DNA of 64,000 nucleotides. It comes from Eledone cirrhosa (taxonomy: Eukaryota). The notes below the pieces were generated by a model. It made no database searches and was not told the origin of the DNA. It saw only the letters and a list, made by a program, of their open reading frames with translations. The stretch spans positions 40,114,001 through 40,178,000 of the forward strand of contig OZ024748.1 of assembly GCA_964016885.1 (NCBI GenBank). Reading direction: 5' to 3'. The position numbers were made by a program, and so were the translations under genes. This document shows, in pieces, positions 4,057 to 17,930 of the stretch. Within the stretch, counting starts at the first letter, position 1. Every line of letters starts with the position of its first letter.

Positions 4057-4073
4057 ATGGACTTCTCCGATCT
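4057..4073 (+). CDS. tnaA: Tandem-domain tryptophanase-like gene, coding exon 1 (MDFSDL)
   Basis: Kozak-like GCCATGG, then ATG GAC TTC TCC GAT CT|GTAAGA. The phase-2 donor matches the phase-2 acceptor at 10498 and gives MDFSDLSDFIEPF. Confidence 0.6.
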
Positions 4074-4236
4074 GTAAGAAAATCTTCTTTTCAATATTTT
4101 TTTCGAAATTATATATATGTGTATATATATATATGTATATATATATATATATATATATATATGTATATATATATATATATATATATATATATATATATAT
4201 ATATATATATATACTACGTTATTCCGGGTTGAATCG

Positions 4237-4290
4237 GAGGTATCCTGATGATTTCTAATGAATGAAACAGTTCTAGTCCTGTAGAATCTC
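4237..4290 (+). ncRNA. Degenerate type I hammerhead ribozyme motif
   Basis: CTGATGA 4245-4251, short stem II ttc/gaa, GAAA 4264-4267, stem III CAG/CTG and a GTA cleavage triplet. Stem I is imperfect and position 10.1-11.1 is a U.U mismatch. Confidence 0.4.
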
Positions 4291-5020
4291 ATCTATATTA
4301 AAACTATATATATATATATATATAGCGGCGATGAATTAGTTTTGCGAGGTTTTTTATATGAAATCGTGTGTCGAAACAAATATTGTTATACTTGGGTAGG
4401 GTCATATTTGTGTAATATTGCCAGAATTAATAACAGAACACACTCACTGTTTGGTTGGTTTTCGCTTCTCGCTGTCTTTTATATCGGTAATCTAACTTAC
4501 TCGGTCCTCAATGTTGCCATTGACTGACCGACGGTCAAAAATAATACAGATACAATATAGACACAAACACATATATATAGTTTATCATAACTCTTTCGTT
4601 GCACATCTGCAACATCGTCAGTGGTGTTATATTTTCCTCCTGTTGTGTTGTATGTCTACGCCATTTTTATTCAGTCTGTCTATATATTTATTTATTTATT
4701 TGCTTGTTTGTTTATTTTATTTCGTCTTCTTTGCGCATGCGTTTGCGTGTGTGTATAGTGTTATGTTTGCTGTGTGATGGGTGACTAGTGTGTGTTTATG
4801 TGCTTGTTGTTATTGTGCTTGTGTATGTATTTATTTATTTATTTATCTTATTTTATTTACTTATTTATACTTCTCTTAGGTCAGTATTGTTTGTTTGGGT
4901 GTTGTTGTTATTCCATTCATTCTTTCTGTTTAGCTTTGGTCTTCTAATTTCTATTTCACTGGCCTCTCTGATTTGCCTATCTGCTGGCTCATTTCTATGT
5001 TTAGATATTATTCTAATTTC

Positions 5021-5125
5021 TATGTTGTCTATGTTACCGTCATGTTGTTGTCTAGCATGTTCGTATAGTACTGAGTACTATACGAACATGCTAGACAACA
5101 ACATGACGGTAACATAGACAACATA
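5021..5125. repeat. Perfect palindrome with 52-bp arms and a 1-nt spacer
   Basis: 5021-5072 is the exact reverse complement of 5074-5125. Confidence 0.95.
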
Positions 5126-5159
5126 TTCTGGCAATATTACACAAATATGACCCTCCCCA

Positions 5160-5488
5160 TATATATATATATGTGTGTGTGTGTGTGTGTGTGTGTGTGT
5201 GTGTGTGTGTGTGTGTGTGTGTATATATATATATGTATATATATATATATATATATATATATATATACATATATATATATATATATATATATATATATAC
5301 ATATATATATATACATATATATATATATATGTATATATGTATATATATATGTATATATATATGTATATATGTATATATATATGTATATATATATGTATAT
5401 ATATATATATATATATATATATATTATATATATATATATATACATACATATATATATATATATACATATATATATATATACATACATA
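5160..5488. repeat. (TG)n/(TA)n microsatellite block
   Basis: Dinucleotide runs. Similar (TA)n tracts lie at about 4110-4212, 6108-6175 and 6390-6530. Confidence 0.95.
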
Positions 5489-14290: not shown

Positions 14291-14393
14291 TGTTGTCTGC
14301 AAATTCCAGCCACAAATTGCTGGCCATGTGCCTAAATTAGAAAACCTTATTCCTGCAAAAGGTCCTGTTAATCCTTAATTATTATTAAATATA

Positions 14394-14547
14394 ACATATA
14401 TACAAACTGAAGCTGTGTCAGGGACCAGCCTGCAAACATATATACAAACTGGAGCTGTGTCAGGGACCAGCCTGCAAACATATATACAAACTGGAGCTGT
14501 GTCAGGGACCAGTCCGCAAACATATATACAAACTGGAGCTGTGTCAG
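14394..14547. repeat. 42-bp minisatellite, about 3.5 copies
   Basis: Unit ACATATATACAAACTGGAGCTGTGTCAGGGACCAGCCTGCAA. Confidence 0.9.
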
Positions 14548-14912
14548 TGACAATGTCTGCAAACAATGAGTTGAACATTTTAACACCAAGAAATATATGA
14601 TAAGTAAAAACTACAGTTAACAGATTTTTGTGTTTTGAATTACTAAAGTGACTCGTGTACAATGTAATTGGTATATATATATATATATATATATATATAT
14701 ATATATACTCTCTCTATATGTATGTGTTTTTATATAAATATGTAAATATTTGTGTATATATATATATATATAGTTGTTATATAGTAAGGTGTATTATTGG
14801 TTGTGTCATACGGTCCAATAAACTTTTGTTAGCAATATTAAGTTCTCCACGCTTTTGTATATCTCCAATTCCATTTAAGGGAACAGCTAGATGATGTAAA
14901 ACGGAGTATTTG

Positions 14913-16503
14913 TATCAAAATAAAGATCCGAAAGCATGGTATAAATTTCCAATCATTTTAATCACAACACGTTTCAATAAGGGATAGATCGATCGTGTGG
15001 TCATGATCGATTATCACTGATTTCATCATTCTTAACTGAGTGTGTAATACGTCTATTTACTAACTGAGAGAACTCTATGGTTAGGGTATTCTAAACCTTC
15101 CTCAGGATTTTTGGAAAGTAACCTACCACTAACTGCCCCCTTTTTACCTTAGCCATAGAGTTCTCTCAATTAGCAAAAAATAGACAATCACACACTCAGG
15201 TAGTAGACAGCTAAGATCATTTGCGCACCTACACACTGTACTGGGTATGTTTCCACAGAGTTCTCACAGCTGAGTGCATATTTACCATTACTTTAGAATA
15301 CCTAGTTAGTAAATAGTTAGAACAATTACACTCGCAGTTAAGACCGATTACGCGCATTCACCATTACTTTAGAATACCCTAACCATAGAGTTCTCTCAGT
15401 TAGTAAATAGACGTATTACACAGTTAAGAACGTTACGTTCTTTATACATAATTCTACACAGTACCCGGTTTCTTTAGACACAGAGTTGCCACAGTTATGA
15501 CCAGTCATGATCTTGTCGATTGAATACTACACTAGGTTTTGGTCTGTGATCCTCTAACCAAGGAGTGCTCACAGTTTGCTGAATGGACAATACTACTTAC
15601 ACGCCATCAATGGAGTTACACACATCCCCGGGGTTTTGTTATTTTATTTTGTGTTGGGTAACACACCTCCACCACTCAAACACTTATCTTAAAGGCCCGA
15701 GGGCCCATTTGACGGGAAAACGCACACACTGACAGCTTAACTCAAATACCCAACCTTATATGGAGCCCCTTGTTGGCCTACATGGCAGGTGCTTGCACGC
15801 ACAGACTCGGGGACCCAGATTCTCAACGGGACAACGGCACATATAGAGTTTGATACGAGCTGACTACTTGCTCTACACATGGATGTGTATATACCAAAAC
15901 ATACACTATTTAGACGATACAGATGTTACAATTCAATCGATACACGTATAGCAGAACGTTGAAGGGAATTTACTTGCGTGTGTATAGTGTTGTGGTTGAC
16001 CCAATTTTTTTCTAATTTACATCGTGAAAATTGAGATTTGACCAATATAACGTTTGTTGTTTTGTAACCTAACTTTTGGTGCATACTGTGTTGCTGTGTA
16101 TATTTTTTTTTTCTCTGACCTCGCGTCGGTGTGTGTGAGTGTGTGTGCACTCAATAACACTAATTGTGGCGGACCAAAATTCTACAGATCTGGTGCTGAG
16201 ATTAGACCTGTCCAGCGTCTTTTACAGCTATTGAGAGATAGAGACTTGATAGATTTATGACCCTGACTGAAGACAATAGCAGTTGTCGTGTTTTGGCTGC
16301 TGATTATTCATATGGGGAACAAAACTCCAGTGAGTGAACATCGTTAGTTTTTCCTCCCTCATATCAAAGATTTGAAGACATTTCATTATTCACCTGAGAT
16401 CAGTGATAATCGATCATGACCACACGATCGATCCCTTATTGAAACGTGTCGTGATTAAAATGATTGGAAATGTATACCATGCCTTCGGATCTTTATTTTG
16501 ATA
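14913..16503. repeat. Fold-back segment with about 105-bp inverted repeats (14913-15021 / 16399-16503) and a nested inner inverted repeat (about 15030-15095 / 15367-15428)
   Basis: Direct reverse-complement matches with few mismatches. Confidence 0.85.
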
Positions 16504-16540
16504 TATATATATAAAACTGAATTTACATTTTTTTTTCCAG

Positions 16541-17930
16541 TCTCCAAGCAATGGAACCTTACAGGATTAAGGTATTTTATCCAGTCAATTTAATCCCCAA
16601 GTCTGACCGTATTGCATGTCTAAAAGCTGCCAACTACAACCCCTTTCTACTTAAATCGAAAGACATATTTATAGATTTGCTAACAGATTCTGGTACAGGA
16701 AGTCAAAGCAGTGCCCAGTGGTCGGCTATGACTAAAGCCGGCTATTCAACTATTAATTCCGAATACGTTAAGGAATTTGTACGTACAATTCAACACATTA
16801 CCAATTTCAAACATGTATTTCCAGTTCATCAAGGTCGAGGAGCCGAAGGTTTGTTGGCAAAACTCCTACTGAATAAAGAGAGTGTTGTACTGAGTAATTC
16901 TCTCTTTGACACAACACGAGCACACGTTGAGTCATCTGGTGCAATTGGAATAGATTTGGCAACAAAGTCTTCAAAATTCTTAGGTGATGCCGATGTGGAA
17001 AAATTTGAAGAAACACTGGATGAATATGGTTCTAGAGTTCATCTTGAAATAATAACCTGCACCAATAATGTGGTAGCCGGAGCTCCTGTGAGCATGCAAA
17101 ATATAGAAATCATAACAAAATTATGTCGAAACAAGAATATCCCAGTTATAATGGACGCATGCCGTTTTGTTGAAAATGCTTATTTTATCAAGACCTTAGA
17201 CGAAAAATATTCTAAACACACAATCTTAGATATTGCCAGCGAAATGTTTTCTTATTTTGATGGTGCAACTATGTCTTTAAAGAAAGATGGTATGAGCAAT
17301 GAAGGTGGGTTTATAGCTTTCAACAACGACAAATGGGCCACCAAAATATTTGACATAATCGAATATAAAAGTGGTTATTCAACTTACGGGGGAATAACTG
17401 GATCAAATCTTGTAGCATGTACTGTCGGAATTTCTGAGGCTATGAACGAAAATTACCTCCGATCAAGAATCTATCAGGCTAAATTACTGGCTGATTTCTT
17501 GGAAGATAATAATATTCCCGTATTTAAACCAGTAGGGGCCCATGCCGTCTACGTGAAAGCAAACAAAGTCTTGCCACACCTTGATTTCTTGAAGTATCCA
17601 GCATGGTCCCTTAATTGTGCCGTATATATCGAAGGTGGTATTTGATGTGCAGAAATTGGCAATATAATGTTTGGTGAAAATTCAGATGGAACAAAACAAA
17701 TTCATCCCTTTGAATATGTGCGTTTGGCTTTACCCAGAAGAACCTATACGGTCAACCATCTGCATTTTGTGGCCAAAACTTTTGGTTTTGTTGCCAAAAA
17801 AGCCCATTTAATCCACGGAATGGAAATTGTCAAATCTTCGCATCTCCTAAGACATTTCACAATTTGGATGAGACCATTAAATGAATACCACCTTGAAAAG
17901 AATAATAATCAGAAAAAAATAAACTGTTGA
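16541..17930 (+). CDS. tnaA: Tandem-domain tryptophanase-like gene, exon 3: domain 2 (PLP-binding tryptophanase domain) with an in-frame TGA at 17643-17645
   Basis: Acceptor TTTTTTTCCAG|16541 (phase 2). Motifs MEPYRIK, IDLLTDSGT, HQGRGAE, FDTTRAH, DACRFVENAY, SLKKDG (PLP Lys 17283-17285), CAEIG, VRLALPRR and LRHFT. ORFs 16551-17645 and 17667-17930 are in the same frame, separated by a single TGA. FDTT, EIG and LRHF indicate tryptophanase rather than tyrosine phenol-lyase (FTTT, ERG, LRFF). Confidence 0.9.

Follow-up and report, generated by a model that had tools for sequence, protein, structure and literature searches.

Can the active site of one enzyme be divided between two exons of an animal gene? 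This question is raised by a tryptophanase-like locus of the octopod Eledone cirrhosa, contained in a stretch of 64,000 nucleotides (contig OZ024748.1, positions 40,114,001 to 40,178,000 of the forward strand) which we call the window and in whose coordinates positions are given below unless they are in Mb. Two large open frames at this locus, domain 1 and domain 2, match the tryptophanase / tyrosine phenol-lyase (TPL) family (PF01212, NF009709), in agreement with the TnaA-like identity given to them by an earlier sequence-only reading. Their NF009709 scores are 389 and 485 bits (cut-off, 285); in the profile search neither domain reached the equivalog cut-offs of TIGR02617 and TIGR02618. The earlier reading had proposed that both domains are spliced into a single chain in which they complement each other's active site. 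Our analysis supports the complementation and leaves the fused chain unsupported. We consider it probable that the locus is one gene in which a shared exon 1 is joined to either of two alternative large exons, yielding two half-active subunits with one composite site per heterodimer. The parts of the gene are as follows.

4057..4073, + strand: coding part of exon 1, serving both large exons; Met, four codons and 2 nt, ending at a phase-2 donor GTAAG
4074..10498, + strand: intron 1, GT-AG, microsatellite-rich
10499..11993, + strand: exon 2, the entire domain-1 subunit (putative Tyr donor, without the Schiff-base Lys); frame open to TAA at 11991-11993; 503 aa with exon 1
11919..11993, + strand: lineage-specific read-on of 24 codons and stop, beyond the end of other octopod domain-1 proteins; holds a candidate phase-2 donor ATG/GTCAGT at 11971/11972
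16541..17930, + strand: exon 3, the entire domain-2 subunit (predicted to bind pyridoxal phosphate (PLP); lacking the general-acid Tyr); 468 aa together with exon 1 where intact, disrupted in the window copy
17643..17645, + strand: TGA stop, in frame, where an Arg codon is otherwise conserved; found only in the window copy, which thereby loses the Arg404 equivalent and LRHF

Reciprocal loss of active-site residues

All the motifs named in the sequence-only reading were found in both domains where it had placed them, and those that bear on the active site are listed here.

10695..10718, + strand: GDESYAGS, domain 1, trans-acting Glu69 and Tyr71 equivalents, kept; Tyr at 10707-10709; Glu and Tyr in 8/8 domain-1 sequences
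starts 10785, + strand: FSECISEE, domain 1
starts 10860, + strand: FTYS, domain 1
starts 11118, + strand: ESSM, domain 1
11238..11255, + strand: SAKRDG, domain 1, with Arg (11247-11249) in place of the Schiff-base Lys; Arg in 8/8 domain-1 sequences
11337..11378, + strand: GFITYGGMAGRDME, domain 1, a second loop acting in trans, which retains the Tyr291 equivalent; Tyr291 and Arg296 in 8/8 domain-1 sequences
starts 11685, + strand: KLEIPRF, domain 1
starts 16680, + strand: LTDSGT, domain 2
16737..16760, + strand: AGYSTINS, domain 2, decayed Glu69/Tyr71 motif; Tyr71 in 0/8 domain-2 sequences
starts 16827, + strand: HQGRGAE, domain 2
starts 16905, + strand: FDTT, domain 2
starts 17154, + strand: DACR, domain 2
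17274..17300, + strand: SLKKDGMSN, domain 2, Schiff-base Lys (17283-17285), kept; Lys in 8/8 domain-2 sequences
starts 17721, + strand: RLALPRR, domain 2
17847..17858, + strand: LRHF, domain 2, tryptophanase-type His/Phe motif, 3' of the TGA in the window copy

Residues were compared in an alignment of eight domain-1, eight domain-2 and two chiton sequences with 225 single-domain bacterial homologues; they carry TPL numbers, read off alignments. A Schiff-base Lys and a general-acid Tyr in one polypeptide are the canonical mark of TnaA and TPL, and both are present in 225/225 bacterial homologues and in both chiton sequences; neither octopod domain has the two together. Domain 1 keeps Glu69 (which we take to act at the potassium site), Tyr71, Tyr291 and Arg296 throughout, and GDESYAGS is invariant in 7/7 in the domain-1 alignment. 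The same eight sequences uniformly carry the changes Lys257 to Arg, Asp214 to Glu, Arg217 to Met, Phe123 to Thr, His343 to Asn and Arg404 to Lys, so that these six cis residues, all of them kept in 8/8 domain-2 sequences, occur in 0/8 for domain 1. Tyr71 is absent from every domain-2 sequence. The earlier reading had named orthologues as a place to check the reciprocal pattern, and there it is conserved (8/8 for each domain), even in some that are just 44% (domain 1) or 51-56% (domain 2) identical to the window proteins. We conclude that the reciprocal loss is real, old and beyond chance.

According to excerpts of two papers, the general-acid Tyr (72*/74) and Tyr307 are supplied by the other chain of the catalytic dimer (PMC11301627, PMC2770544). 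Since domain 1 keeps trans-acting residues (the Tyr71, Glu69 and Tyr291 equivalents) and domain 2 the PLP-binding cis residues, each pair is best read as forming one composite site, and on this point the earlier proposal holds. Domain 2 bears tryptophanase-type marks, namely the Asp of FDTT in 8/8 sequences and the His-Phe of LRHF, and TPL Arg381 is absent; the roles of these positions in tryptophanase and TPL are treated in excerpts of PMC11301627 and PMC10170061. Because this Asp and the His-Phe pair are present, the domain-2 isoform would be expected to bind PLP and tryptophan. The empty pocket of domain 1 is not in free decay: even between sequences of 44% identity, the Arg that replaces Lys and the Glu that replaces Asp do not vary; our guess is that a salt bridge between these two residues fills the cofactor space. 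The predicted fold of domain 1 alone, made from 7 sequences, was uninformative (mean predicted local distance difference test, pLDDT, 43).

Two isoforms from a shared exon 1

The closest relatives of the window proteins are Octopus and Argonauta proteins. In RefSeq, a single O. bimaculoides gene yields isoform X1 (XP_014791032.1, 481 aa), which holds domain 1 alone, and isoform X2 (XP_014791033.1, 465 aa), which holds domain 2 alone, and O. sinensis has a matching pair of one domain each (X1 XP_036366181.1, 480 aa; X2 XP_029647098.2, 467 aa). The exon 2 product is 75-76% identical to X1 of the two species and the exon 3 product 82-83% identical to RefSeq X2, and the exon 1 peptide opens all four isoforms. 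Joining window exon 1 to 10499 reproduces XP_014791032.1 over its first 21 aa, so that the junction 4073/10499 of the earlier reading agrees with X1. Joining it to 16541 reproduces XP_014791033.1 over its first 13 aa, and the 16541 acceptor is therefore explained as a partner of the exon 1 donor. In either large exon the acceptor precedes conserved Glu-Pro codons by 13 nt; this shared phase is what a duplication of the large exon together with its acceptor would give, and no fusion is needed. An exon-1-like peptide followed by one domain is also found in four Logan domain-2 proteins (P0236, P0354, P0355, P0359).

The GT/AG-bounded segments of 17, 1473 and 1390 nt from which the sequence-only reading had built its single chain do join into 2880 nt, 959 codons plus stop, and this joined frame is interrupted by the TGA at codon 865 (17643-17645). 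The single-chain architecture, with its unconfirmed junction 11971/16541, is nevertheless probably wrong, as other octopods have the domains as separate isoforms, with a stop of its own for domain 1. In 5/5 octopod orthologues, Argonauta included, domain 1 stops directly after an FF[KH]x[IM] tail, at a point 50 nt (17 codons) before the proposed donor. Searches spanning 273-2485 aa, which were word-based and not exhaustive, gave no animal-type match in which domain 2 follows domain 1. Copies of exon 1 are located only upstream of domain 1. Poly(A) hexamers follow both large exons, yet they are common in such AT-rich DNA.

The gene probably arose when the large exon and its acceptor were duplicated within it, before octopods split from more distant relatives, the duplicates then losing complementary halves of their common active site. 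The product of exons 1 and 3 would bind PLP through its Lys and supply the cis residues; that of exons 1 and 2 would contribute the second interface loop together with the general-acid Tyr. In the resulting heterodimer, with one live site, the domain-1 Tyr would protonate C3 of the indole. A single promoter would keep the subunits co-expressed, and duplication of whole units would keep their dosage matched. We infer the pairing of the subunits, their substrate and their stoichiometry from sequence. If it holds, an obligate heteromer made by alternative whole-domain exons behind one promoter would be a neat lock on co-expression and dosage.

A tandem array and a damaged copy in the window

A search of the 3.0-Gb genome gave 23 matches (a lower bound), all of them on one contig (C8) at 39.13-40.13 Mb. 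They form an array in which 10 domain-1 exons and 9 domain-2 exons lie on the plus strand, accompanied by 2 inverted partial domain-1 pieces, two of the nine domain-2 exons being counted as two pieces each. Since every one of these at least 23 matches falls in the array, no intact single-subunit gene was seen. The array copies are 98.7-99.9% identical to the window copy. Five of the ten units are complete, with exon 1 present and both frames open; two others have no coding part of exon 1 and the same frameshift in domain 2, in one the frame of domain 1 is shifted and exon 1 is missing from its vicinity, and another consists of domain 1 alone.

At the position of the TGA, 8/8 other domain-2 copies have CGA, so that neither recoding of the codon nor a lesion common to the whole family can explain it; the base could be an error of the assembly. 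Judged from its frames, the window copy can make domain 1, and its domain 2 is predicted to be dead. Two further changes are unique to this copy and would fit relaxed selection on it: domain 1 has lost 3 nt in frame, about 915 nt beyond 10499, and a Val of domain 2 has become Glu. Three inverted pieces in the array carry exon 1 (39.594, 39.659 and 39.976 Mb), and two of these also include about 890 nt of exon 2; antisense or truncated transcripts could come from such pieces.

From the identity and state of its copies, the array seems to have been amplified recently in a birth-and-death process; some copies could be artefacts of the assembly. Such a tenfold expansion suggests that a higher turnover of indole or tryptophan is of use to this lineage.

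Phylogeny and a single-chain parallel in bacteria

In trees each octopod domain forms a clade with its orthologues from Octopus and Argonauta (Shimodaira-Hasegawa-like approximate likelihood ratio test, SH-aLRT, 100). Both domains group with other mollusc enzymes (SH-aLRT 99, with chiton, in a 92-row tree; 88 in a 57-row tree), and domains 1 and 2 are not resolved as sisters inside the mollusc group. A clade of domain 1 with the N-halves of the bacterial fusions described below was rejected by the approximately unbiased (AU) test (p-AU 0.0013), trees and test being quick searches on subsamples. These results reject an origin of the octopod gene by horizontal transfer from bacteria in which the fusion had already taken place.

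Two groups of relatives stand beside these. The Logan proteins P0237 and P0358 are of domain-2 type, have also lost the Arg409 equivalent and have an altered EIG motif; perhaps they represent a third, more decayed paralogue. Haliotis has a multi-copy tryptophanase-like family (P0388, P0532-P0535), of which P0388, in a pairwise alignment, keeps Lys and is without Tyr71 and Tyr291, possibly another independent loss in molluscs. A metagenome scan for cephalopod domain-1 DNA kept 80 loci, with best-segment identities of 35-40% and none of them cephalopod-like.

A search for longer relatives returned 106 proteins, 4 of which are fusions to unrelated domains. The other 102, together with one protein of 867 aa, make a set of 103 bacterial two-domain fusions. 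They are tyrosine phenol-lyases of 870-930 aa in one open frame (P0003-P0104). Tyr71 and Tyr291 are present in 103/103 N-halves and Lys257 in 2/103; in the C-halves Lys257 is present in 103/103 and Tyr71 in 0/103, and the TPL-type Thr124 and Arg381 are found in 101/103. In a set of 80 genome loci kept for this comparison of gene arrangement, fusions occur at 11 (11/11 reciprocal), a pair of unfused genes, in which no such loss was seen, at 6, and a single gene at 63; the fusion loci come from Gemmatimonadota, Deltaproteobacteria, Bacteroidota (Saccharicrinis), Eisenbacteria, Planctomycetota and Acidobacteria. One structural model of a bacterial two-domain protein (pLDDT 81; predicted template modelling score, pTM, 0.73) had TPL as its best Foldseek match.

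Over 96 near-invariant positions, the losses of domain 1 agree with those of the bacterial N-halves (22 shared, p=0.0019) and the losses of domain 2 with those of the C-halves (5 shared, p=0.029); crosswise agreement is absent (p=1.0 and 0.25). These p-values are guides, as the positions are not independent. Because the trees put the octopod domains with molluscs and reject the N-half clade, the octopod and bacterial splits are convergent, and because the same residue-level split arose independently in bacteria, the outcome of duplicating a shared-site PLP enzyme would seem to be repeatable.

In one Candidatus Eisenbacteria locus (L073, 4971-9066), an intact tryptophanase gene lies directly 5' of a fused two-domain TPL. 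Four further two-domain proteins of 860-910 aa (P0365, P0367, P0385, P0404) show differing or partial loss patterns, and possibly are earlier stages or separate fusions.

Alternative readings

Several observations weigh against the two-isoform heteromer. The split is not fully clean, as domain 2 keeps Tyr291 in 4/8 sequences and Glu286 is lost in both domains (0/8 in domain 1). Exon joins reproduce the RefSeq N-termini, but these isoforms are gene models from other species. Among the array copies exon 3 bears no sign of purifying selection, with 16 non-synonymous and 4 synonymous changes (ratio of the two polymorphism rates, pN/pS, 1.09) against 22 and 13 in exon 2 (pN/pS 0.44), the counts being small and including broken copies. 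Lastly, the stop found in 5/5 octopod domain-1 orthologues is lost here, giving a read-on of about 25 residues, and a candidate in-phase ATG/GTCAGT donor is present in it in 10/10 array copies.

These last two points speak for a fusion restricted to the Eledone lineage, in which loss of the domain-1 stop and in-frame splicing of exon 2 to exon 3 would give a pseudo-heterodimer of 959-960 aa beside the free domain-2 isoform. Given how often such sites occur over 31 kb of the window, the chance of meeting one of this quality among 25 in-phase positions is 0.6-4%. No copy has a frameshift in the read-on 5' of the donor, and the 2-nt insertion found just 3' of it in one copy is a single event. The domain order would be that of the bacterial fusions, with about 50 linker residues available compared with 7-24 there. 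However, the phase match is accounted for without a fusion; the donor was chosen post hoc, two other exon 2 sites scoring equally; and C at +3 is uncommon in real splice donors. A domain 1-domain 2 chain was not found in the word-based, non-exhaustive searches over 273-2485 aa, and among 137 stored proteins longer than 600 aa the sole animal-type one is an 847-aa Argonauta prediction with the reverse order and a truncated domain 2. We discarded this protein (GAB1609293.1) as support for a fusion, its domain 2 being cut at residue 373 between neighbouring domain-2 models; given the reversed order and the cut domain 2 amid such models, it is probably a mis-joined prediction. The read-on itself has too few changes among 99%-identical copies for a selection test. 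On balance we regard the lineage-restricted fusion as unlikely. There is likewise only a small chance that a two-isoform heteromer has just been converted into a single chain of about 960 residues through stop loss and the donor at 11971, followed by a roughly tenfold amplification of the unit. If this were true, an animal would have reached independently the Tyr-donor-first, PLP-domain-second architecture of uncultured bacteria, and every step from homomer through split isoforms to fusion would be visible within molluscs.

Alternatively, the domains could work apart, domain 2 as a homo-oligomeric PLP lyase for substrates whose leaving groups are good, such as cysteine, S-alkyl-cysteine or serine, and domain 1 as a structural or regulatory pseudoenzyme. 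Excerpts of the literature state that cysteine, S-alkyl-cysteines and serine are substrates of the family as well (PMC12943590) and that some mutants dead towards tryptophan, such as D133A, retain activity of this kind (PMC11301627); moreover, stand-alone homologues with the Lys and without Tyr71 exist among 147 representatives screened. Against such separate functions, domain 1 retains exactly the residues that work only in a partner's site, its homodimer offers no PLP site on which they could act, and the losses resemble those of covalently tied bacterial halves (p=0.0019 and 0.029). We hold this explanation to be improbable.

That two neighbouring genes make the same heteromer, domain 2 starting from its own Met (16551) behind its own promoter, is very improbable: domain 2 does have an in-frame ATG 10 nt 3' of its acceptor, where models P0353 and P0362 begin, but the exon 1 peptide is present in RefSeq X2 of two species, and the interval between exons 2 and 3, searched for coding mini-exons running from ATG to a phase-2 GT[AG]AG donor, yielded none (0 found); a non-coding exon could lie there.

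Other features of the window

The remainder of the window is rich in repeats. An 18.6-kb satellite with a 67-bp unit (about 95% matches) occupies 35504-54091, and a 3-kb repeat of CAC type (about 1040 units) lies at 54573-57666, with long stop-free frames and no sign of a gene. Minisatellites are found at 21097-21858 (54 bp), 22150-22740 (14 bp), 26467-28571 (48 bp), 31819-33998 (40 bp) and 34241-34931 (48 bp). Broken pieces of RVT_1 reverse transcriptase, resembling long interspersed nuclear elements, are present on the minus strand at 2908-3468 and 59339-60286; the RVT_1 piece at 59339-59890 has an additional weak PHD-finger match.

Comparison with known systems

Complementary half-dead subunits seem already to have been published for cephalopods: Yuasa (J Mol Evol, 2023) reportedly described two cephalopod tryptophan indole-lyases, each inactive alone and weakly active as a co-expressed heterotetramer. 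In E. coli tryptophanase, hybrid Y74F/H463F dimers are likewise said to rescue activity (Phillips, 2002). What is new here is the roughly tenfold array and the independent bacterial parallel. A literature search that had most subscription journals outside its reach gave no paper on an exon shared in this way, on the array or on a fusion, and none on fused bacterial tyrosine phenol-lyases was among the literature matches listed. Octopus appears among the holders of tnaA in an excerpt of PMC8537960.

The Octopus pair (XP_014791032.1, XP_014791033.1) is orthologous to that of Eledone (75% and 82% identical), with the same reciprocal losses and, in the models, the same shared exon 1. Eledone differs in its approximately 10 tandem units, the domain-1 read-on of about 25 residues and the nonsense codon in domain 2 of the window copy. 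The tryptophanases of E. coli and P. vulgaris (PDB 2c44, 1ax4) and TPL of C. freundii (PDB 2ez1) are of the same family as the octopod domains; they are homotetramers with Lys and Tyr in every subunit, whereas neither octopod subunit has both.

A similar path is known in another family: in serine palmitoyltransferase (SPT), for which an excerpt of PMC6148460 describes the SPT1/SPT2 heterodimer and a single-chain Coccolithovirus enzyme, a PLP homodimer has likewise become a heterodimer, presumably with one site and with one subunit lacking the Lys, and a fused form exists in nature. SPT1/SPT2 differ from the octopod pair in family and reaction, and in being two genes and not two isoforms of one. 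The bacterial single-chain TPLs are like the octopod pair in their reciprocal split into a Tyr-donor half and a Lys half; they differ in being truly one frame, in their TPL-type specificity residues and in their independent origin (AU p=0.0013). Together, the octopod and bacterial pair offer a natural test of the transition from homomer to obligate heteromer.

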